Assembly: GCA_938042265.1 (NCBI GenBank)
Contig: CALIRN010000327.1
Location: forward strand, 1-34,218
Origin: an uncultured Eubacteriaceae bacterium
GTDB lineage: Bacteria > Bacillota > Clostridia > Lachnospirales > CAG-274
Length of the DNA stretch: 34,218 bases
Reading direction: 5' to 3'
A program made the translations under genes and the position numbers. Positions 3,762-34,218 of this stretch are shown in pieces. Within the stretch, counting starts at the first letter, position 1. Each line of letters starts with the position of its first letter. Below the pieces are notes generated by a model. That model worked only from the letters and a program-made list of their open reading frames with translations, was not told where the DNA came from and did no database searches.

Positions 3762-4853
3762 TTAATACATATAGCTGTCCTTATGCGCCATATATTTACT
3801 TACCATTAGCATAATCTTGAATATAATGGCATCATCAAAGTTTCTAAGGTCAAGCCCTGTCATTTTCTGTAGCTTATCAAGCCTGTAAACAAGAGTATTT
3901 CTGTGTATGTAAAGCTGACGCGATGTTTCGGACACATTCAGATTATTCTCAAAAAATTTATTAACCGTAACCAGTGTTTCATCGTCAAACTGATCCATTG
4001 AAACACCGTGGAGCACCTCATTAATAAACATTTTACAAAGTGGAGTAGGCAGCTGATAAATAAGTCTGCCGATACCAAGCTGCTCATAGTTGACAACATT
4101 TTTGCTTTCCTCAAAAATTTTGCCTACCTCAAGGGCCATTTTAGCCTCCTTGTAGGAAGCGGAAACATTTTTAAGATCCATAACGGCAGTACCTATTGCA
4201 ATATAAACATTGCTCATGGCCTCTGCAGTAAGGGTATCATAAATAGTTTTGGCAATGGACTCAATTTCCTCTTTGCCATCTTTCTCCTTAAGCTCCTTAA
4301 CAAGAATAATACTCTTTTCGTCAACGGCGGTAACAAAATCCTTTTGTTTTGTGGGGAATATGCTGCGTACAATTTCAACCACGTTCAAATCCTTATCAAT
4401 TTCAGTTTCAATAAGGTAAACAATACGTCTTACATTATTTTCAATATGAAGCTTTTTGGCACGGGAATAAATATCCACCAACAGCAGATTATCAAGGAGC
4501 AGGTTTTTAACAAAATTGTCTCTGTCATAGCGCTCCTTATAGGCAACAAGCAAATTCTGTATCTGGAATGCAGTAATTTTGCCTATACGGTAGGTTTCCT
4601 CATCCTCGCCCTTGATAAGCACTATATACTCGGTATTGTTGTTATCAAACACCTTAAAATACTGATAACCCTGAACAAGCTGGTTTTCAGCAGGGCTGGC
4701 AACAAAAATATTTATATTTTCAATAGTGGTATTTGCCATCCCCTCTTCGGTAGTAGCAACAATTTTACCCTCTCTTTCGCAAACACTAAGCTCACGCCTT
4801 GTAATATTTTTAAGTCCGTCAATAGTGCTCTGCAAAATCTGGTTGGAAATCAT
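3762..4853 (-). CDS. CdaR/PucR-family transcriptional regulator
   Basis: C-terminal PucR-type HTH (NVSETSRQLYIHRNTLVYRLDKLQKMTGLDLRNFDD) and overall CdaR-like length. The ATG at 4853 has AGGAG 8 nt upstream. The GTG at 4862 in the ORF track overlaps that RBS. Confidence 0.75.
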   Translation of the reverse strand: MISNQILQSTIDGLKNITRRELSVCEREGKIVATTEEGMANTTIENINIFVASPAENQLVQGYQYFKVFDNNNTEYIVLIKGEDEETYRIGKITAFQIQNLLVAYKERYDRDNFVKNLLLDNLLLVDIYSRAKKLHIENNVRRIVYLIETEIDKDLNVVEIVRSIFPTKQKDFVTAVDEKSIILVKELKEKDGKEEIESIAKTIYDTLTAEAMSNVYIAIGTAVMDLKNVSASYKEAKMALEVGKIFEESKNVVNYEQLGIGRLIYQLPTPLCKMFINEVLHGVSMDQFDDETLVTVNKFFENNLNVSETSRQLYIHRNTLVYRLDKLQKMTGLDLRNFDDAIIFKIMLMVSKYMAHKDSYMY

Positions 4854-5022: not shown

Positions 5023-5031
5023 TGTTATAAT
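5023..5031 (+). promoter_or_regulatory. Extended -10 promoter element TGTTATAAT
   Basis: A TGnTATAAT match a few nt upstream of the start of the structured element. No good -35 is present. Confidence 0.45.
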
Positions 5032-5035
5032 AAAT

Positions 5036-5196
5036 ATATACGTGTTTAGGAGCCTTAGCCTTACGGCTAATTCTCCGCAAAAGCTTTGCTTTTGCATTAT
5101 ACTACTCATAGGTCGTTAAATCCGACCTATTTCGTACCATATCCGATGAAATCAAGGTTTTCAGCCTTGTTTCCCCCTGCGGATATGGTATAATAA
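5036..5196 (+). repeat. Solo copy of the ~161-nt structured intergenic element (candidate ncRNA or leader)
   Basis: Reverse-complement match to the units at 29505-29996: same ACGTGTTTAGGAG start, same four helices, terminator-like inner hairpin, and 3' TGGTATAAT (5186-5194) 49 nt before the zapA-like ATG. Confidence 0.7.
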
Positions 5197-5242: not shown

Positions 5243-6295
5243 ATGGAGGCATCTAATCAGAAAAAACAGGTTGAAGTAGTAATAGGCGGTAAGGTTTACA
5301 GACTTGCAGGCAATGAAAGCGAGGAGTATATCCAGTCCGTTGCACATTATATTAATAAAAAGCTTGTTGAGCTAAGCAGACATAGCGCGGCAGGCATTGA
5401 GTTTACTGAAACATATCCCATATTGCTTGCCCTTAATATTGCCGATGATTTGTTTAAGGAACGCAGCAGAGATAAAAACGATGATAAGGAGCAAAATTCA
5501 GCACGGGCTGAAGCCTTGTCCGACCTTAGTGACCTGAGTAATCAGCTTGTTGAAAAAACTCATGAAATTGACGAGCTTAATAAAACCATTACTGAAAAGG
5601 ACGGTGCCATTGCCAAATATAAGGCAGCTATGCAAAGCGGCAGCGTACAGTTTGAAAACTTTAAAAAGGCTATTGCCGAAAGAGATGCGGAAATAACCAG
5701 GCTTCGCAACAGGCTTTCCGCAGCCAACAGTGATATTGCAGCACTTACCTCAAAAACCTCAGACAGCAGTATTGAAATAGGTGAGCTTAACAAAAAAATT
5801 GCCGCAAAAAACAAGGAGCTTAATTCTCTGTCAGTCAAATTGTCAGAAAAAAATGCGGCTCTCAACGAGCTTAATAAAAAGTCCGCCGAGCGCAACCAAA
5901 AGCTTAACAGTGTTAATAAGGAGCGTGACGAGCTTGCCGTAAAGCTTAAGGAAGCAAACTCCGCCATAGCTTCACTTAATAATCAGATAAATAATATTGA
6001 AAAAAGCTCAGACGGTATTAAAGATGAGCTTAACGATACAATAACCGCATTAAACCAACAGATTGAAAAGCTGAATGACGAAAAAAATGCTCTCAATGAA
6101 AAGCTTGACAAGCTGAACGGTGATTATATCGGCTTACAGCAAAGTATTCCTCAGGGTGATGCAACTGACCTGCAAAATGCTCTTAACGCCGTTAAGGCTG
6201 AAAACCATAAGCTGTACAACGACAACGAACAGCTTTTACAGGAGCTGAATCAGGCTAAGGGCGAGCTTAAAAGCTTTATTGACAGCCTGAGATAA
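5243..6295 (+). CDS. zapA: ZapA-domain cell-division protein with a long C-terminal coiled coil
   Basis: The N-terminal ~80 aa (VEVVIGGKVYRLAGNESEEYIQSVAHYINKKL...LLALNIADDL) matches the ZapA fold signature. The remaining ~260 aa are heptad-like, with E/K/L/N-rich repeats (ELNKK..). RBS AAGGAGG lies 7 nt upstream. Confidence 0.75.
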   Translation: MEASNQKKQVEVVIGGKVYRLAGNESEEYIQSVAHYINKKLVELSRHSAAGIEFTETYPILLALNIADDLFKERSRDKNDDKEQNSARAEALSDLSDLSNQLVEKTHEIDELNKTITEKDGAIAKYKAAMQSGSVQFENFKKAIAERDAEITRLRNRLSAANSDIAALTSKTSDSSIEIGELNKKIAAKNKELNSLSVKLSEKNAALNELNKKSAERNQKLNSVNKERDELAVKLKEANSAIASLNNQINNIEKSSDGIKDELNDTITALNQQIEKLNDEKNALNEKLDKLNGDYIGLQQSIPQGDATDLQNALNAVKAENHKLYNDNEQLLQELNQAKGELKSFIDSLR

Positions 6296-13700: not shown

Positions 13701-13729
13701 ATTATAGCATATTACATTTTGCTTATCAA
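13701..13729 (-). promoter_or_regulatory. Strong sigma-A promoter (TTGATA - 17 nt - TGcTATAAT) for the 676-aa protein gene
   Basis: Minus strand reads TTGATAagcaaaatgtaatatgcTATAAT, about 40 nt upstream of the ATG. Confidence 0.6.
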
Positions 13730-14771: not shown

Positions 14772-14953
14772 CATAAGTAATTTTTTACTGATGGCAACCG
14801 TAAATTGCTCCAATAACCTGATAACCCAATTATACACCGGATCCTTTGAAAAATAAAGCAGTCTTTTGAATTTTTCCTTATAATTTTTACCACCTTGTAG
14901 AATACCCCTGAATTTGTTATAATAAAAATGATTTTTTATGAAAGGAGTTAATT

Positions 14954-24571: not shown

Positions 24572-24820
24572 TTATTCAGTACGTCCCTCTCCTGCCCTTA
24601 CAATACCGTAGGCAGTATAAATATCGGCATTGCCTCTTATCTTGATAGCCGAAGTATTCTCTGTAAATTGTACAATTAAAACTTCTCCCTCGTCAAGTTT
24701 TTCAGTGTGATGGAACTTGGTATCTTCACCTCTTGTAAGTCCTATAACATTAACTCCTTTTTCAAGAGATTTTACGCAAATGTAGGGAAATTCCGCATCA
24801 GTTTTGTCAATATTGTCCAT
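24572..24820 (-). CDS. mtrB: trp RNA-binding attenuation protein (TRAP) homolog
   Basis: [42 protein letters not shown] is near-identical in pattern to B. subtilis MtrB as I recall it ([42 protein letters not shown]). Size is about 82 aa from the ATG at 24820. Confidence 0.85.
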
Positions 24821-24956
24821 CTTGAAAATCACTCCTTTTAGGTTTTGTTGTTTAAATTATACAAATAGCACTTTATTTTCCTGACATTTTTCTACAATTT
24901 CAGCCCATTGAAAATTTACCTTAATTTTAAGGAAAACTGAATTAATCATGATTTCT

Positions 24957-26020: not shown

Positions 26021-29000
26021 TTATTTCACTATCACGCAGCTCTCACCGCAAAGTCTCTTAAGCCCGTCCAACAGCTCATCACAGGGCTTTGCGTAATACT
26101 GGGGCGAAACACTCATACGCTTTTTTGTTTTTTCATCATAAATAATAACCTTGCTTGTGCCCCTGTTTCGTATAAGCATATTTTTTATAATTTCCATATC
26201 AACAGCTTTATCGGCAGGCAGCTTTATCCATACAGTTTTATCCGCCTCCGCCAGCTCATCATAGGCTTTGATGCCGTCAGCCACAATTTTAGGCTCCTTA
26301 CCCTCTGAAATATCTGTTCTGCCGGAAACAAGTATAACCCTGTTTTCACCCAAAATACGTGAGGAGGCTTCATAAAGCTGAGGAAACACTATAATATCTA
26401 TGCTTCCGTTTATATCCTCTAAGGTAATATAGGCCATCTTCTGATTTTTTTTGGTAAACTTAACGGACAGGTTTTCAATAATACCGCCTATTGTTACCTT
26501 TTCCTTATCCATGATTTTGCCCTGCATACCTATTTCCTCATCATTCTGCGGAAAATCCAGAGTTGTACAGGATACAAAATTTTTAAGCACAGACTCATAA
26601 GCAGCCAAAGGATGACCGCTGACATATATACCAAGCAGCTCCTTTTCCATTGACAGCAGATCCACCTTTGAAAACTCCTTTACATCCGGAAGATTATCCC
26701 TGTAAATATCCTCGGGTTTTTCCGCCGTCAGAGCAAATAAATTCATCTGACCTGCCACATTGTTACGCCTGCTCTGGCCAAGGCCGTTATGTATAAGCTT
26801 GCAAACCTGCATATACTGGGCGCGCTTACCTCCAAGGCTGTCAAAAGCGCCGCTTCGTATAAGGCTTTCAACACATTTGGTATTCATTACGGCACCCATT
26901 CTCTCCAAAAACTGGGTAAGACTTATATACGGACCATTTTTATCTCTGTCACGCACCATTGCTTCAACGGCCGCACGTCCCACACTTTTTATTGCCGCAA
27001 GACCAAAACGTATATTGCCCTCGTGCTTTGTAAACTGCGGGTAGCCGTTATTGATATCTGGCGGAAGCAGTTTAATGCCAAGCCTGCGGCACTCTGCAAT
27101 ATATTCTCTTACCTTTGTGCTGTTATCGGCAACACTGGTAAGAAGCGCCGCCATAAACTCAACAGGATAATAAGCTTTTAGCCATGCTGTCTGATAAGCC
27201 ACAACCGCATAGGCGGCCGCATGGGACTTATTAAAGGCGTACTTTGCAAAGTCCGTCATTTCATCAAAAATATGATTTGCTACATTGGCAGGTATACCGT
27301 TTTTAATACAGCCGGGTACCCCCTCCGCTTCATCACCGTTAATAAACTTCTCCCGTTCTCTCGCCATTACATCTGTCTTTTTTTTACTCATGGCACGACG
27401 TACCATATCGCTTCTGCCAAGAGAATAGCCTGCAAGCTCACGCACTATCTGCATAACCTGCTCCTGATAAACAATACAACCGTACGTGGGCTTTAAAATA
27501 GGCTCAAGACGAGGATGTGTATATTTTACGCTGTCACGGCTCCGCTTACCCTGTATATACTTTGGTATAAAATCCATAGGACCAGGACGATACAGGGAAA
27601 TACCTGCAATAATATCCTCTATATTATGAGGCTGAAGTTCCTTCATAAAGGAGGTCATACCAGGGCTTTCAAGCTGGAACACGCCTACGGTATTACCCTT
27701 TGATATAAGCTCAAACACCTTTTTATCATCATAATCAATCTTATTGGGATCATATTTTATACCGTAGTTACGCTCAACCTCCTTAAAGGCATTCTGTATA
27801 ACGGTAAGGGTTCTCAATCCCAAAAAATCCATTTTTAAGAGTCCCAGTTCCTCAATGGTGGTCATAGTAAACTGAGTTGTAACAGTACCGTCATTGGTGC
27901 TGAGTGGCACATAATCCACTACCGGTCGGTCACAGATTACCACACCTGCCGCATGAGTTGAGGAATGTCTTGGCAAGCCCTCCAGCTTGCGCGCCATATC
28001 AATCAGGTTGTGTATCTCAGGTTCATTTTCATAAATTGCCTCAAGGTCCGAATTAATTCCCATAGCCTTATCTATTGTCATTTTCAGCTCCATGGGAATC
28101 ATTTTTGCCACCCTGTCACAATCACTGTAAGGTAAATCAAGGGCTCGTCCCACATCACGAATTGCATTACGTGCCTTCATTGTACCAAAGGTAACAATCT
28201 GCGAAACCTGATCAACTCCGTACTTATCTACAACATAATCAATAACCTCCTGTCGCCTTTCATAACAGAAGTCTACGTCAATATCAGGCATACTTACACG
28301 CTCAGGGTTAAGAAAACGTTCAAAAATAAGGTCATAATGTATTGGGTCAATATCCGTAATTTTCAGGCAATAAGCAACAATACTGCCTGCTGCCGAGCCT
28401 CTGCCCGGACCTACCATAATATCGTTACGCTTTGCATAGCCTATAAAGTCCGCTACTATAAGGAAATAGTCCACAAAGCCCATCTGCTCAATTACGCTAA
28501 GCTCATACTCCAGCCTTTCCCTATGTTTCTCCGGATTATCCGGATAACGCTCCCTAAGCCCCTCATCACAAAGTCTGTGCAGATACTGTGAAGAAGTCAT
28601 ACCATCGGGCACATCAAAAACGGGCAGCTTATATTTATTAAATTCAAAGCTGACATTACATCGGCTTGCTATTAAATTGGTATTTTCACACGCCTGTCTT
28701 GCATAGGGAAAAAGGTCATACATTTCCTTTGGAGATTTAAGATAAAACTGACCGCCAAGATATCTCATACGGTTTTCATCATTAACGGTTTTTCCTGTCT
28801 GTATACAAAGCAGAATATCATGAGCTTCCGCATCCTCCGCATTAATATAATGCAAATCGTTGGTACACACAAGCGGAATACCTGTTTCATCACTCATACG
28901 CAGAAGCGCCTGATTAACCGTCTGCTGCTCCTCCATGCCATGGTCCTGCAATTCAAGATAAAAATTACCTTTACCGAATATTGCCTCATACTCCAGTGCG

Positions 29001-29476
29001 ACTTCCTTAGCTTTATCATAGCCCTGCCTTAAAACAGTGCGTGCAACGGGGCCCGCAAGGCAGGCAGACAATGCAATAACTCCCTCGTGATACTTTTCAA
29101 GCAGTTCCTTATCAACCCTGGGTTTATAGTAAAAGCCTTCCGTAAAACCGTAGGACACCATTTTTATAAGATTTTGATAGCCCTTATTATTTTCCGCAAG
29201 CAGCACAAGATGATAGTAAAAATTATCCTCTGACGCTTCCTTATTAAAACGTGAGCCTGAGGCAACATACACCTCACAGCCAATTATGGGTTTAATACCC
29301 TCCCTAAGGGCAGCCTTATAAAAGTCAATAACACCGTACATGACACCATGGTCGGTAATTGCTATTGCTTCCATCCCCAGCTCCTTTGCTCTCTTACAAA
29401 GCTCATTTATTTTTGATGAGCCGTCAAGCAAGCTGTACTCCGTATGCACATGTAAATGAGTAAATTGGTTTTCCAT
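26021..29476 (-). CDS. dnaE: DNA polymerase III alpha subunit (DnaE type)
   Basis: PHP-domain N-terminus FTHLHVHTEYSLLDGS, a polymerase core (PDIDVDF, GLLKMDFLGL) and a C-terminal OB region. 1151 aa with no PolC-type exonuclease insertion. Confidence 0.92.
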   Translation of the reverse strand: MENQFTHLHVHTEYSLLDGSSKINELCKRAKELGMEAIAITDHGVMYGVIDFYKAALREGIKPIIGCEVYVASGSRFNKEASEDNFYYHLVLLAENNKGYQNLIKMVSYGFTEGFYYKPRVDKELLEKYHEGVIALSACLAGPVARTVLRQGYDKAKEVALEYEAIFGKGNFYLELQDHGMEEQQTVNQALLRMSDETGIPLVCTNDLHYINAEDAEAHDILLCIQTGKTVNDENRMRYLGGQFYLKSPKEMYDLFPYARQACENTNLIASRCNVSFEFNKYKLPVFDVPDGMTSSQYLHRLCDEGLRERYPDNPEKHRERLEYELSVIEQMGFVDYFLIVADFIGYAKRNDIMVGPGRGSAAGSIVAYCLKITDIDPIHYDLIFERFLNPERVSMPDIDVDFCYERRQEVIDYVVDKYGVDQVSQIVTFGTMKARNAIRDVGRALDLPYSDCDRVAKMIPMELKMTIDKAMGINSDLEAIYENEPEIHNLIDMARKLEGLPRHSSTHAAGVVICDRPVVDYVPLSTNDGTVTTQFTMTTIEELGLLKMDFLGLRTLTVIQNAFKEVERNYGIKYDPNKIDYDDKKVFELISKGNTVGVFQLESPGMTSFMKELQPHNIEDIIAGISLYRPGPMDFIPKYIQGKRSRDSVKYTHPRLEPILKPTYGCIVYQEQVMQIVRELAGYSLGRSDMVRRAMSKKKTDVMAREREKFINGDEAEGVPGCIKNGIPANVANHIFDEMTDFAKYAFNKSHAAAYAVVAYQTAWLKAYYPVEFMAALLTSVADNSTKVREYIAECRRLGIKLLPPDINNGYPQFTKHEGNIRFGLAAIKSVGRAAVEAMVRDRDKNGPYISLTQFLERMGAVMNTKCVESLIRSGAFDSLGGKRAQYMQVCKLIHNGLGQSRRNNVAGQMNLFALTAEKPEDIYRDNLPDVKEFSKVDLLSMEKELLGIYVSGHPLAAYESVLKNFVSCTTLDFPQNDEEIGMQGKIMDKEKVTIGGIIENLSVKFTKKNQKMAYITLEDINGSIDIIVFPQLYEASSRILGENRVILVSGRTDISEGKEPKIVADGIKAYDELAEADKTVWIKLPADKAVDMEIIKNMLIRNRGTSKVIIYDEKTKKRMSVSPQYYAKPCDELLDGLKRLCGESCVIVK

Positions 29477-29504
29477 GGTATCACCTGCCTAAAAAATTCA
29501 TTAT

Positions 29505-29996
29505 TTAATATTGTACAATATCCGCAGGTAAAACAAAGCTGCAAGCCTTGTTTTCACCGGATATGGTGCGAAATAGGTCGGCTTTGACGCCCTATGAGCA
29601 GCATAATGCAAAATTTTACGGAGGATTAGCCGTATGCCTAAATCTCCTAAACACGTATGTGTTTATTATACCATAATCGCAACAAAAACAAGGCCGGAGG
29701 CTTTGTTTTTGCAGATTATGGTACGAAACAGGTCGGCTTTGTCACCTGTGAGTAGTATAATGCGAAAGCTCTGCTTTTGCGGAGAGTCAGCCGACAGGCT
29801 GAGGCTCCTAAACACGTATGTGTTTATTATACCATAATCGCAACAAAAACAAGGCCGGAGGCTTTGTTTTTGCAGATTATGGTACGAAACAGGTCGGCTT
29901 TGTCACCTGTGAGTAGTATAATGCGAAAGCTCTGCTTTTGCGGAGAGTCAGCCGACAGGCTGAGGCTCCTAAACACGTATGTGTTTATTATACCAC
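29505..29996 (-). repeat. Head-to-tail array (161-bp period, about 3 units) of a structured element; candidate tandem sRNA cassettes or stacked dnaE leader
   Basis: 29644-29804 and 29805-29965 read as identical, and the match continues to about 29996. A diverged unit lies at about 29505-29660. Each unit has four helices, a terminator-like hairpin (29682-29710, 29843-29871) and TGGTATAAT (-10 hexamers at 29665-29670, 29826-29831, 29987-29992). Confidence 0.8.
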
Positions 29997-30078
29997 AGTC
30001 GGCGACAAATAAAAAGAGTTATTGTTTAATAAAAATACACCAAAGCTTAAACCAAAGCAGACAGACAGCTTTTGTATA

Positions 30079-30105
30079 TAAAAAAGGTGCCGCAATGCGA
30101 CACCC
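30079..30105 (-). terminator. Intrinsic terminator of the infC-rpmI-rplT operon
   Basis: Minus strand reads GGTGTCGCATTGCGGCACC followed by TTTTTT, about 20 nt after the rplT stop. Confidence 0.75.
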
Positions 30106-30122
30106 TAAATAGCAAATAAATA

Positions 30123-30476
30123 TTAAAGAGCAGCCTTAGCTGTTTCCGCAAGCTTAGTAAAAGCAGCAGCATCATTTACGGCAAGCTCGGCAAGCATCTT
30201 TCTGTTGATGTTTACATTAGCATTCTTAAGACCGTTCATAAACTTGCTGTACGAAAGACCATTCATTCTTGCAGCAGCATTGATACGTACAATCCAAAGT
30301 CTTCTGTAAGCTCTCTTAGTCTGTTTTCTGCCTGCAAAGCTGTGAGCCATAGCTCTCATAACAGACTGCTTTGCAACTCTGTACTGCTTACTTCTTGCGC
30401 CTACAAAGCCCTTAGCCATCTTTAAAACTTTCTTATGCTTTTTACGTGCGTTTAATGCACCTTTAACTCTAGCCAT
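30123..30476 (-). CDS. rplT: 50S ribosomal protein L20
   Basis: [37 protein letters not shown] is the canonical L20 sequence. Confidence 0.95.
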
Positions 30477-31353: not shown

Positions 31354-31522
31354 TGACACCTCCAATATAATAAATGACTTTTTGTTATGCTGTAATAAAA
31401 AAAACAGAGCCCAAAGCTCTGCCTCCATTAACTTATACATAACCACAGGTAATGTGAATATGAAAATGGTTTAACCTTAAAGCCTTGACCGTAAGGTGAG
31501 AAGTGAGCTTCTTCTTTACAAC
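31354..31522 (-). promoter_or_regulatory. infC leader with attenuator, probably an L20-responsive leader
   Basis: About 170 nt of transcribed leader between the consensus promoter and infC. It contains a terminator, CAGAGC-TTTG-GGCTCTG plus TTTTTTTT (31397-31422). Position and architecture match the Firmicutes L20 leader, but I could not verify the sequence family. Confidence 0.5.
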
Positions 31523-31528
31523 AAAAAG

Positions 31529-31557
31529 ATTATATCACTCCTCAGCCTCAATGTCAA
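31529..31557 (-). promoter_or_regulatory. Consensus sigma-A promoter TTGACA - 17 nt - TATAAT for the infC operon
   Basis: Minus strand reads TTGACAttgaggctgaggagtgaTATAAT, perfect in both hexamers and in spacing. Confidence 0.75.
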
Positions 31558-31586: not shown

Positions 31587-32849
31587 TCATTGTTTATAAA
31601 ACTCATTATATAAGCGCTCCTCAACTTCATCAAGCGTCATTTTTCCATAAAGATAATAAGTACTTTCATTTATAAAGCTTAAGTATACATCCTCTGCCTC
31701 AAATACCGTATTCATTTTTGATAAATACTCCTGGTTATCAGCAATCTGCTGATTTGCATCTGCTGCAAGATCATTAAGCATATCCTCATGCTCCAAAACC
31801 TCAAGGGCACTGTCACTTATCGGTATACCCTTTTCATCTTTTTGCAGAAGTGCCATTTCCCTACTGTTAATCAAAAATTCCAAAAGCCTTGCAGCAGCCT
31901 CAGGTTCCTCAGTGTGTTTGCTTATAGCATACATAGTGGCAGGCTTAACATACCAGCCAAGCCTTTTTACATATTCTGCTCTCGGATAAGCCCCCACAAC
32001 CACATTTGCGCCCCTTTCAATCAATATACTGCAATAGCTGTCCACATCGCTTACCCAGCCAACAGTTGCCCCTGCCTTACCCTGCGAAAACAAATTCCTG
32101 TCATATTGCTGTACGGGTGGCATAACCCTTTCATCAATTAGGCGTTTATAAAACTTAAGCATATACCCGATATCCTCTTTTGTCAGCAAAAGTCTGCCGT
32201 CTTCATCACAGGCTGATTTACCCGTAGTCTGCTCAAAATATGACAGCACAAAAAAGAATGCCGCCTTATCACCCATACCTATAGGATAAATGCCGTCCTT
32301 ACCCATTATCTTTGCCGCAGCAAAGAAGTCCTCCCACGTCGTAGGCAAAGGTATATTGTATTTATCATACAAGTCCTTATTATAATATAGTGTTTCAACA
32401 TTAAATGCAATTGGTATGGCATTAAGGTGTCCGTTTACCTCGCCATATGCAAGCTCCTCATCAGTAAAGGTCGATAAGTCCACATAGTCCGTAAGGTCAT
32501 AAATATCGTAAAATCCATCACCCTCCGGGGAGTAATCTGATATCCACGAATAATTAATCAGCATAACATCAGGTTCATCATTTGACTTCATAAATATATT
32601 CTGTCGCTTGCTGTAGCCATTCCAGATGCCGTATTTACATTCAACCCTTATATCCTCATTAAGCTGTTCAAATACGCTAACCCCCTCCATCATATACGTA
32701 TGTCTGCTGTCGCCGCCCCACCATGACAGGCTTATATGTTTTGTATTAAGCTGCTCCTCAACCACATTATCCCCGTCCGAACAGCCAAACATATTAAAGG
32801 CTAAAACGATACATAATGCAGCAGAAAAAAGCCCTTTAATTTTTTTCAT
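31587..32849 (-). CDS. Extracellular solute-binding lipoprotein (ABC SBP family 1-like), orphan
   Basis: MKKIKGLFSAALCIVLAFNMFGCS is a lipoprotein signal. The rest is a sugar-type SBP-like sequence of ~420 aa. The ATG at 32849 is preceded by AAGAGG. No permease or ATPase gene follows. Confidence 0.7.
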   Translation of the reverse strand: MKKIKGLFSAALCIVLAFNMFGCSDGDNVVEEQLNTKHISLSWWGGDSRHTYMMEGVSVFEQLNEDIRVECKYGIWNGYSKRQNIFMKSNDEPDVMLINYSWISDYSPEGDGFYDIYDLTDYVDLSTFTDEELAYGEVNGHLNAIPIAFNVETLYYNKDLYDKYNIPLPTTWEDFFAAAKIMGKDGIYPIGMGDKAAFFFVLSYFEQTTGKSACDEDGRLLLTKEDIGYMLKFYKRLIDERVMPPVQQYDRNLFSQGKAGATVGWVSDVDSYCSILIERGANVVVGAYPRAEYVKRLGWYVKPATMYAISKHTEEPEAAARLLEFLINSREMALLQKDEKGIPISDSALEVLEHEDMLNDLAADANQQIADNQEYLSKMNTVFEAEDVYLSFINESTYYLYGKMTLDEVEERLYNEFYKQ

Positions 32850-32874
32850 ATTATTACCTCTTTTTGTAACGCTT

Positions 32875-34218
32875 TCAATAAAACGTAAAGCGGTTTTTAC
32901 CGTTCTTTTTTGATTTATACAAGGCAACATCAGCCGCCTTGTACATTTTATTAAAGTCCATTTCGCCATATTCTGCCAATGCAATGCCTGCACTTAAGGA
33001 CAGATTACAGCTTTCCGTTTCATCGGCAAATTCCATTGCAAAATCATTGCGCAGTATTTCAATTTCAGACTGAATTTTACGCTTAACATCCCCTTCATCA
33101 GCCTCGGTAAAATGAAAAAATATAGCAAACTCATCACCGCCCAGTCTGCCCATAACAGCCTTTGTACCAAACCTCGCTTTAATAAGACCCGATATACGCA
33201 CAAGTATATTGTCGCCCATATCATGTCCAAGCGTATCATTAACCGTTTTAAAGTTATCCATATCAAGCATAACAAAAGCATTGACATCCTTATTGGTGCT
33301 TGCTTCCATAACAGCGCTTACAGCAGTTTCAAAGGACATTTTATTAAGCAGACCCGTAAGCAGATCATGCTCCGCTTTATCTGCCAGACCTAAAACAATC
33401 TGATTCATTGGGTTTGAAACCTTATTAAGCAAAATCAAACCAAAGGAAATCATCAGTAACAGCATTCCAAAGGAAATAAGGTATATAAATATTTTTACCT
33501 CCGTAATTTCCTTCATAATAATTTTATTTGGTATAGAACAAACAACCAACCAGTTATTGCTGTCACATTTGTTTGATGTAACCAGATAATCCTTACTTAA
33601 AACCATATTACCCCCATTGGCATTAATAAGATTATATATATTCTCATTAAGTTCTTTACCTATCTCATCCTTATTGTTTGAATACAGTACCGTTGAATTT
33701 TCATCCACCAGACGCACAATCATATCATCATGCATATCCTTTGGCACCTCAAATACGGACTCAATTTCACGGCTGTAGAACGAAACAAATAAAATTGAAT
33801 TTTCATTAAGCCTTTTTGCATAAAACAAATTTCTATGATTGTCCGCAGCATCAGAGAACCAGCCCGTTGCACCTTCATCTCCGTCAATTCTGCTCTCAAT
33901 ACCGCTGTATATCTTACCGTCGGCAAAAATTTTATATGTAGCATCTGACACCCAGCCTACCGTACGGTCATTTGCATAAACCACCGCAAAATCCGCATAG
34001 TTTTCAAGCACGCCCAAATCCTGTATTCTGTTTTCTATTTCTGTTTCTTTCTGGATTTTTTCAAATTCGTCATACTCGTCAGAGGTTGCGTCATACTGAT
34101 AATATACCTCATCAGAAAAAAACAGCGATGTTATGGTTTTTATCTTTTCCAGATAATTATCCAAATTCATAACCTGCTGTGATGTGTTTAAGTTAATAAG
34201 CGTTGCTGTCTTTTTCAG
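32875..34218 (-). CDS. Diguanylate cyclase with periplasmic Cache-like sensor, TM segment and GGDEF domain (5'-partial at the window edge)
   Basis: The RLGGDEFAIFF active-site motif and DMDNFKTVND are present. A TM helix (IFIYLISFGMLLLMISFGLILL) separates the ~220-aa extracytoplasmic part. The reading frame stays open from 34170 to the window end, so the true start is probably outside the window. Confidence 0.8.
   Translation of the reverse strand: MKKTATLINLNTSQQVMNLDNYLEKIKTITSLFFSDEVYYQYDATSDEYDEFEKIQKETEIENRIQDLGVLENYADFAVVYANDRTVGWVSDATYKIFADGKIYSGIESRIDGDEGATGWFSDAADNHRNLFYAKRLNENSILFVSFYSREIESVFEVPKDMHDDMIVRLVDENSTVLYSNNKDEIGKELNENIYNLINANGGNMVLSKDYLVTSNKCDSNNWLVVCSIPNKIIMKEITEVKIFIYLISFGMLLLMISFGLILLNKVSNPMNQIVLGLADKAEHDLLTGLLNKMSFETAVSAVMEASTNKDVNAFVMLDMDNFKTVNDTLGHDMGDNILVRISGLIKARFGTKAVMGRLGGDEFAIFFHFTEADEGDVKRKIQSEIEILRNDFAMEFADETESCNLSLSAGIALAEYGEMDFNKMYKAADVALYKSKKNGKNRFTFY

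Follow-up and report, generated by a model that had tools for sequence, protein, structure and literature searches.

The stretch of DNA analysed in this study (all 34,218 nt of the NCBI contig CALIRN010000327.1, referred to below as the window) comes from an uncultured gut Lachnospirales bacterium. Our subject is a repeated element of about 161 bp in the spacer between rplT and dnaE, two genes on the minus strand; coordinates are window positions unless a contig label precedes them. A first-pass annotation made from the sequence alone had named both flanking genes, and NCBIfam matches confirmed them: dnaE (26021–29476) encodes DNA polymerase III alpha (1151 amino acids; NF005298, 1806 bits), and rplT (30123–30476) has rpmI and infC upstream of it. 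Using Tandem Repeats Finder, we recovered one strong tandem array in the window, at 29644–29995, with a period of 161 bp, 2.2 copies, 100% matches and a score of 704, in agreement with the head-to-tail period that had been proposed.

The phase of the units was set by the element-free promoter sites of relatives, which are described below. In this phase, and in the sense of dnaE, the array follows the resident dnaE promoter (29987–29997), an extended -10 box TGTGGTATAAT with CTCTTTTTATTT on its 5′ side that aligns with the related genome L033 and with the element-free L032 (CTCTTTTTATTT...TATGGTATAAT). Two units of 161 nt come next. Unit 1 (29826–29986) was delimited by Tandem Repeats Finder, folding and alignment of copies, and unit 2 (29665–29825) is identical to it, as had been claimed in a different phase; the junction between identical-type units was also found in a separate contig (L021). 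Unit 3 (29510–29664; 155 nt) is the diverged third unit that the first-pass annotation had placed near dnaE. It matches units 1 and 2 at 75–83% in gap-free blocks, carries a 7-nt deletion that shortens one of the hairpins described below (P2), has a -10 box decayed to TTGTACAAT and occurs as a strain variant in contig L019. It adjoins the native dnaE leader and ribosome-binding site (RBS; ATTAAATAATGAATTTTTTAGGCAGGTGATACC), which cover the 33 nt to the ATG (29477–29509) and align with the leader 3′ of the -10 box at the empty sites of L032 and L002. All of these features lie on the minus strand. The array does not fill the entire spacer, as first thought: 29998–30122 lies outside it and holds the intrinsic terminator of rplT, in the L20 operon (30084–30106, minus strand; hairpin of -14.3 kcal/mol), together with about 86 nt of unique sequence.

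The earlier statement that no open reading frame (ORF) fits the unit also held, in that no ORF is conserved and the 7-nt deletion of unit 3 shifts the frame. Public assemblies annotate a spurious 67-amino-acid ‘gene’ here (29634–29837, plus strand; L001:3640–3843), an antisense ORF that runs across units 3 to 1.

The first-pass annotation had allowed that the identical units might have been produced during assembly. Of the short-read contigs of this locus, from at least four samples, most break within the first or the last unit. The full array is traversed only by the window and by one scaffold identical over 6456 bp, which probably comes from the same sample. A MEGAHIT contig (L021), whose source sample may be that of the window, reads from the end of one identical-type unit through a full unit into unit 3, and this order therefore requires at least two identical-type units. 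In L019, from another sample, unit 3 is preceded by the end of the long hairpin (P4) of a unit-type copy. The locus consequently contains at least two identical units in addition to the diverged unit 3, while the exact number is beyond short reads.

Copies at other loci and element-free promoters

The element is known at four loci. A search of the window with two conserved blocks of the unit, allowing mismatches, detected a solo copy of 163 nt on the plus strand (5032–5194), which ends in TGGTATAAT. It directly follows the resident promoter of a zapA-like operon, an extended -10 box TGTTATAAT (5023–5031, plus strand), on the left side of which homology with the relative L038 extends through TTTATGATATAAT. 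The copy lies 48 nt 5′ of the ATG of the zapA-like gene (5243–6295), the homologues of which carry the Pfam domain ZapA and which is the first gene of an operon with a U32 peptidase and FtsW. Logan contigs (k = 31) of this locus have their starts within the element, and the 30-mers found there are shared by no known copy; further copies would therefore exist in these genomes.

A pattern scan of 185,579 species genomes yielded one more solo copy, of 162 nt, in an uncultured Clostridiales metagenome-assembled genome (MAG; CABUWB010000236.1, L011). It lies between a divergent recX-like gene and a gene for a secreted protein, 31 nt before the ATG of the latter. In the same contig (L011:985–1017) the -10 box in front of the solo copy has a second TATAAT (990–995) 16 nt upstream of it, and GCCCTTTTTTATGG just 5′ of the -10 box resembles the inner 3′ arm of P4 (GGCCTTGTTTTT...ATGG); it may be the remnant of an earlier unit.

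The fourth locus is the dnaE promoter of L033 (GCA_965312425.1; DnaE 84% identical), where two diverged units, L033a and L033b, precede the gene. The proximal unit L033b breaks off within P4 and is fused directly to the RBS of dnaE (AAAACAAAGCAGGTGAAATAATATCATG), and it is therefore part of the dnaE 5′ untranslated region (UTR). The alternative offered in the first-pass annotation, namely modules that feed into dnaE, is thus physically true in L033.

Other searches for the unit returned no copies. These comprised two exact-pattern scans of metagenome contigs, exact-pattern scans of viral contigs (apart from one chance match in a G+C-rich coding region, L012) and blastn against plasmids and phages. 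No match was obtained in a protein collection when the joined stop-free six-frame translations of the unit were used to fish for spurious ORFs. Within all fetched loci, relatives included (about 189 kb), nhmmer and a covariance model (R1) revealed no further or more diverged copies. The element is dispersed rather than confined to dnaE, and at all four loci it is co-directional with the downstream gene.

Several relatives have these promoters without the element. At dnaE it is missing from L032 (DnaE 85%), L002/L024 (84%), L034 (80%), L036 (81%) and L037 (80%), that is, from 5 of the 7 species of the clade, and at zapA from the orthologous spacer of L038–L040, which represent one relative. In a DnaE tree the two carriers, the window species and L033, are not sister taxa; the named entries whose DnaE is nearest to that of the window are Lachnospirales MAGs and [Clostridium] colinum (63–68%).

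Alignment with these empty sites defined the boundaries of the element exactly. At dnaE, the left flank CTCTTTTTATTT...T(A/G)TGGTATAAT occurs in the window, in L033 and in L032, which is empty and in which this flank leads directly into ATTATCA...AGGGCAGGTGATACTATG; in the window the array's last -10 box is succeeded by a similar leader (ATTAAATAATG...AGGCAGGTGATACCATG). At zapA, the homology between the window and L038 runs through TTTATG(T/A)TATAAT and resumes from AAATATTTTTTTACATAAGGAG, with the element in between. At both loci the homology of the flanks includes the left TATAAT and restarts right after the TATAAT of the element itself, and the left TATAAT is therefore the -10 box of the resident gene. 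The insert extends from the base after the left TATAAT to the last T of its own TATAAT, and its length ranges from 155 to 163 nt (units 1 to 3 of the array, 161, 161 and 155 nt; zapA copy, 163 nt; L011, 162 nt; L033a, 161 nt).

A direct repeat, T(A/G)TG(G/T)TATAAT, flanks the element at every locus, the left copy belonging to the resident promoter and the right copy being paired within P4. Being identical with the -10 box, this repeat differs from an ordinary target-site duplication. Comparison of the two ends revealed no terminal inverted repeats: the start AAACACATACG and the end GATTATGGTATAAT are not complementary, and the only long inverted repeats of the element are its internal hairpins. 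[quoted passage not shown] The several loci, the presence and absence between close relatives and the contig breaks inside copies are those of a dispersed repeat.

One of the empty dnaE promoters has a leader of another kind. In L037 (ERR4564387_8489; 3800–4022) about 190 nt lie between a TGTGATATAAT promoter and dnaE. In this leader, distant segments are complementary (ATCAAATACAAACC / GGTCGATTTGTATTT) and one hairpin resembles a terminator (AAAAAACTTTTCTTTAAAAAGAAAAGTTTT); the leader's sequence is unrelated to the 161-bp element. In view of this unrelated structured leader, dnaE in this clade seems prone to gaining such leaders.

Hairpins, promoter boxes and the terminator-like segment

Folding of one unit with RNAfold gave energies far below those of shuffled controls, both in the dnaE sense (z = -6.5) and on the opposite strand (z = -7.2), and it returned the hairpins listed in the first-pass annotation. 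RNAalifold, applied to seven copies of which about five are independent, independently recovered the hairpins that had been named for the unit and added one missing from that list, for a total of five (P0–P4). P0 (TAAACAC/GTGTTTA; 29970–29987 in unit 1, minus strand, as are the following) adjoins the -10 box. It is followed by P1 (GGAG..TCAGCC/GGCTGA..CTCC; 29942–29969) and by P2 (29923–29941), in which the arms GCAAAAGC/GCTTTTGC are invariant and the loop is variable. The unpaired segment J2/3 (ATTATACTACTC in unit 1, 29911–29922) separates P2 from P3 (29889–29910) and is conserved as GCATTATAC(T/A)ACTCA. The last hairpin, P4 (29829–29885), is 57 nt long with a helix of 25–28 bp, and its 3′ arm together with AAT forms the extended -10 box of the unit (TGGTATAAT, 29826–29834).

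The helices change in a coordinated manner among the copies. In the seven-copy alignment 93.2% of the pair cells are standard pairs, and both sides have changed in nine pairs, a number matched by 1 of 500 column shuffles and compared with 0–2 in slid controls. At the base of P1, GGAG/CTCC is replaced by AAGC/GCTT in L033a and by GAGA/TCTC in L033b. P3 shows TCG/CGA replaced by TTGC/GCAA, and P4 shows ATAATC/GATTAT replaced by ATATCC/GGATAT or ATATTCG/CGAATAT. With so few sequences, we regard these changes as support for, not proof of, a constraint that maintains the hairpins. Such a constraint may act on RNA, on single-stranded DNA or on duplex palindromes.

An extended -10 box for each unit had also been predicted, and candidate boxes were found at the unit ends: TGGTATAAT closes the array units, in degraded form in unit 3, as well as the zapA solo copy. 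Across the loci the last -10 box is about 33–48 nt 5′ of the ATG, a normal distance from promoter to start. In the whole window TGnTATAAT occurs 12 times, compared with 3.4 expected from shuffles, mostly 30–90 nt before gene starts (for example 13701–13709, 14915–14923 and 31529–31537), and extended -10 promoters therefore seem to be the rule in this organism. Each unit also has the -10 sequence in both orientations, since ATTATAC in J2/3 (29911–29922) is the exact reverse complement of GTATAAT at the unit end (29826–29832). The two could pair in RNA, in competition with P4, or ATTATAC could mark an antisense promoter; covariation is uninformative on the pairing because both partners are invariant.

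In the inner part of P4 a short G+C stem stands between an A-tract and a U-tract, and this layout had been taken for an intrinsic terminator in each unit. Our results speak against this. The G+C core stem has -2 to -6 kcal/mol, compared with -14.3 kcal/mol for the rplT terminator, and the U-tract is broken by Cs in the zapA solo copy and in L033a. A terminator scan of 29300–30300 called the rplT terminator only and not P4. P4 consequently lacks the stable G+C stem directly followed by a U-tract that is typical of intrinsic terminators, and with so weak a terminator a discrete RNA of about 135 nt is not confidently predicted. Judged from the spacing, a start of transcription 6–8 nt after TATAAT would fall inside the 5′ arm of P0, and RNA from the adjacent promoter would therefore be unable to form this hairpin; P0 is nonetheless kept in the solo copies. 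Together with the fusion of L033b to the dnaE RBS, these points weaken the earlier reading of each unit as a self-contained promoter, 135-nt RNA and terminator.

The unit could not be assigned to any known RNA family, as had been stated. No match at gathering score was obtained for the whole window in Rfam 15. With the threshold relaxed to E < 10, only scattered chance matches to eukaryotic small nucleolar RNAs and microRNAs were returned for the array, the solo copy, L011 and L033, and no family recurred across the diverged copies. ARAGORN detected no tRNA or transfer-messenger RNA. Other identities were considered and rejected. The P0 palindrome differs in spacing and half-sites from the consensus LexA and NrdR boxes; no core matching a dif/Xer-like site or an integron attC site is present; the lack of a conserved ORF and the size of the repeat are wrong for a type I or type III toxin–antitoxin system; and no motif of a T-box or a ribosomal-protein leader was found.

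Interpretation of the element

We favour the reading that the element is a lineage-specific, non-coding, promoter-carrying dispersed intergenic repeat that was tandemly amplified at dnaE, and we give this reading about an even chance. The element sits immediately 3′ of a resident -10 hexamer, in the orientation of the gene, and since it ends in an extended -10 box of its own (TATGGTATAAT), the downstream gene would retain a promoter at the native distance. The 3′ end repeats the sequence that precedes the 5′ end, so that unequal recombination, or re-insertion behind an existing copy, could generate a head-to-tail array; at dnaE the outcome would be the two or more identical units and one older, decaying unit. 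The resident and internal promoters would then transcribe through the units and yield a hairpin-rich RNA containing P0–P4. This RNA would serve as a long structured dnaE 5′ UTR, or it may be partly stopped or processed at the 25–28-bp helix of P4, the 3′ arm of which would form the upstream half of the next promoter.

A number of observations weigh against this reading. The recovered copies represent four loci only and about five independent sequences. At these loci we saw neither a transposase or recombinase nor a new insertion event, and it is consequently presence and absence that argue for mobility. The patchy pattern at dnaE could also have arisen if the element was inserted in an ancestor and was afterwards lost precisely, and repeatedly, between the direct repeats that flank it. 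Neither strand is favoured as the transcribed one by the counts of G.U and A.C mismatches, which are similar on both, and in folding the plus strand is at least the equal of the dnaE sense (-68.8 versus -57.9 kcal/mol). Finally, conservation between two species with only 84% DnaE identity, compensated helices and the invariance of the unpaired GCATTATAC.ACTCA and of the P2 arms GCAAAAGC/GCTTTTGC are also the pattern expected of a selected functional RNA.

A more specific proposal, which we regard as possible though rather improbable, is that the element is a non-autonomous mobile DNA that targets the -10 boxes of sigma-A promoters. Such DNA would enter directly 3′ of TATAAT, with one orientation, restore the promoter through its own extended -10 box and build arrays by targeting itself: since its 3′ end recreates its own target, the element would insert behind itself and head-to-tail arrays would follow. 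Insertion may take place in the single-stranded open complex of a promoter, as single-stranded DNA transposition of the HUH/Y1 kind would allow. To our knowledge, targeting that homes to promoters and restores them has not been described for bacterial repeats.

That the units are genes for trans-acting small RNAs (sRNAs), both tandem and dispersed, appears unlikely to us. Each extended -10 box would then drive an RNA of about 135 nt that ends at the P4 terminator and exposes unpaired seeds at its 5′ end (ACGUGUUUA) and in J2/3 (AUUAUACUACUCA). Such genes would account for the extended -10 box before every unit, for the conserved single-stranded stretches and compensated helices and for the A-tract, hairpin and U-tract layout of P4, and multicopy tandem sRNAs are a known kind. 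The expected terminator, however, is weak in its core stem, has an interrupted U-tract in the solo copy and in L033a and is not called by the scan, and the predicted start would cut the conserved P0. Every copy lies exactly between the -10 box and the leader of another gene rather than at a locus of its own, L033b has no terminator and runs straight into the dnaE RBS, and close relatives do without the element. The earlier suggestion of a locus-specific set of paralogous sRNA genes fails in particular on the solo copies before the zapA-like gene and the secreted-protein gene and on the relatives whose orthologous promoters lack the unit.

We also doubt, rather strongly, that the element is a dedicated cis-regulatory leader (a riboswitch, a protein-binding leader or an attenuator) for dnaE, the zapA-ftsW operon and other genes, stacked at dnaE. 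Orthologous promoters are without it in five relatives at dnaE and in one relative at zapA (L038); the downstream genes, for a DNA polymerase, cell division and a secreted protein, have no obvious common function; a promoter copy after the last unit would bypass an attenuator; and neither a convincing terminator/antiterminator pair nor an Rfam 15 match was found. These points have to be set against the sense orientation of the element and its constant place in the downstream gene's 5′ region at 4 of 4 loci, and against L033b, which is necessarily in the dnaE 5′ UTR. The invariant junction sequences and covarying helices fit a leader as well, and AUUAUAC in J2/3, being complementary to GUAUAAU at the unit end, could compete with P4. 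Both the sRNA and the dedicated leader are less likely than a dispersed repeat.

A function at the level of DNA or of the opposite strand is very unlikely in our judgement. P0 (+1 to +18) and the 57-bp P4 (the -35 to -10 region of the next promoter) would be protein-binding or cruciform sites, or an antisense RNA would start from GTATAAT of J2/3 on the plus strand. The retention in solo copies of a P0 that abuts the -10 box, and so could not fold in RNA from that promoter, speaks for this reading, as do the lack of strand bias in the mismatches and the slightly better folding of the plus strand; the plus-strand sequence GTATAATGC is, moreover, invariant in all copies but unit 3 (CATAAT). However, the plus-strand TATAAT has neither a TG extension nor a -35 match, the promoter that actually drives each downstream gene has no P0-like palindrome after it, and no candidate binding protein is known. 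Hardly credible, finally, is an assembly artefact in which the identical pair was mis-resolved and the genome has a single unit or some other number: the majority of contigs breaking inside units and the full traversals confined to the window and a scaffold probably from its own sample are what it would leave, but L021 needs at least two identical-type units, L019 from another sample has a unit-type P4 end before unit 3, and L033 has an independent tandem pair.

If the dispersed-repeat reading is correct, a small selfish or domesticated repeat lands in promoters of a gut Lachnospirales lineage without silencing them. It would add a structured transcribed spacer and extra promoters before core genes such as dnaE and the zapA-ftsW division operon, and it would permit rapid and reversible rewiring of expression as the copy number changes by recombination between units. 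The element also breaks short-read assemblies at these loci and yields spurious ORF calls such as the 67-amino-acid ‘gene’. If it is instead a functional RNA, its five compensated helices and the lack of an Rfam match would mark a new class of structured RNA.

Other features of the window were recorded in passing. Upstream of infC (31447–31540, minus strand) no match to the Rfam L20 leader was found despite an intact infC-rpmI-rplT operon; the segment contains an extended -10 box, TGATATAAT (31529–31537), and model R1 gave a non-significant match at 31380–31515 (E = 0.45). Downstream of azlCD, an ORF of 86 amino acids (24572–24832, minus strand) has a counterpart in L018 with the domain of TrpBP, the TRAP tryptophan RNA-binding attenuator protein (Pfam PF02081); it adjoins pyruvate kinase, not a trp operon. 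As listed, the ORF of a sugar-binding protein (31587–32993, minus strand) shares about 118 nt with that of a GGDEF diguanylate cyclase (32875–34170, minus strand). The sugar-binding protein is split in some assemblies (L001) into genes of 306 and 156 amino acids, which suggests strain-level frameshifts or mis-called starts.

Comparison with known repeats and multicopy RNAs

Elements derived from IS200/IS605 insertion sequences (PATE-like) resemble the present one in lacking terminal inverted repeats and a target duplication, in having hairpins near both ends and in a fixed orientation to an asymmetric target that abuts the left end. The end hairpins P0 and P4 are, however, unrelated in sequence, which argues against membership, and neither a TnpA gene nor a full-length parent of the element was seen at the recovered loci. 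We know of no report of a TATAAT target for this group.

Tandem multicopy sRNA loci are known, for example LhrC1-4 of Listeria and PrrF1/PrrF2 of Pseudomonas. They share with the array the head-to-tail arrangement of segments of about 100–150 nt, a promoter-like box before each segment and a hairpin followed by Us at its end. Such loci occupy intergenic regions of their own and have strong terminators, whereas the element described here lies inside the promoter-leader region of other genes, has a weak terminator and in one copy runs into the downstream RBS.

Among the repeats of Firmicutes, BOX of Streptococcus pneumoniae and bcr1 of the Bacillus cereus group are likewise intergenic, modular or tandem (boxB copies) and predicted to form stable RNA folds; bcr1 shows compensatory base changes (PMC3184786), and BOX affects the expression of neighbouring genes. 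In BOX, however, only an internal module of 45 nt is repeated, while bcr1 has direct repeats of 5 bp and a two-hairpin cruciform. Neither is reported at a -10/+1 junction or as ending in a promoter copy.

Correia elements of Neisseria, which carry promoters (PMC3184786), and other bacterial MITEs are similar in size (about 100–160 bp), in being dispersed and present or absent in close relatives, in supplying promoters and in forming long hairpins when transcribed. They differ in their terminal inverted repeats and short target duplication (TA); our element lacks the former, and the direct repeat on its flanks is a -10 box of the same sequence at every locus.

Neisseria REP2 and the Borrelia repeats IR-A/IR-B are promoter-carrying intergenic repeats without terminal inverted repeats that lie immediately upstream of genes (PMC3184786). 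Like the element, they are 120–180 bp long, multicopy and intergenic, with internal stem-loops (PMC3184786), and the element likewise appears to carry a promoter immediately upstream of ORFs, in sense, and to contribute to their 5′ UTR. REP2 differs in having its own RBS and ATG, whereas here the native leader and RBS follow the element and are homologous to those of empty sites. Five hairpins, a terminal one of 57 nt whose 3′ arm is the promoter, a resident -10 box on the left and head-to-tail arrays also distinguish the element from REP2, as do its unrelated sequence and its phylum (Firmicutes, Lachnospirales-like). Placement exactly after a resident -10 box, with a 3′ end that recreates the box, is not described for the REP2, Correia, BOX and bcr1 families in PMC3184786. 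On balance, we would place the element closest in kind to the Neisseria REP2 and Borrelia IR repeats.

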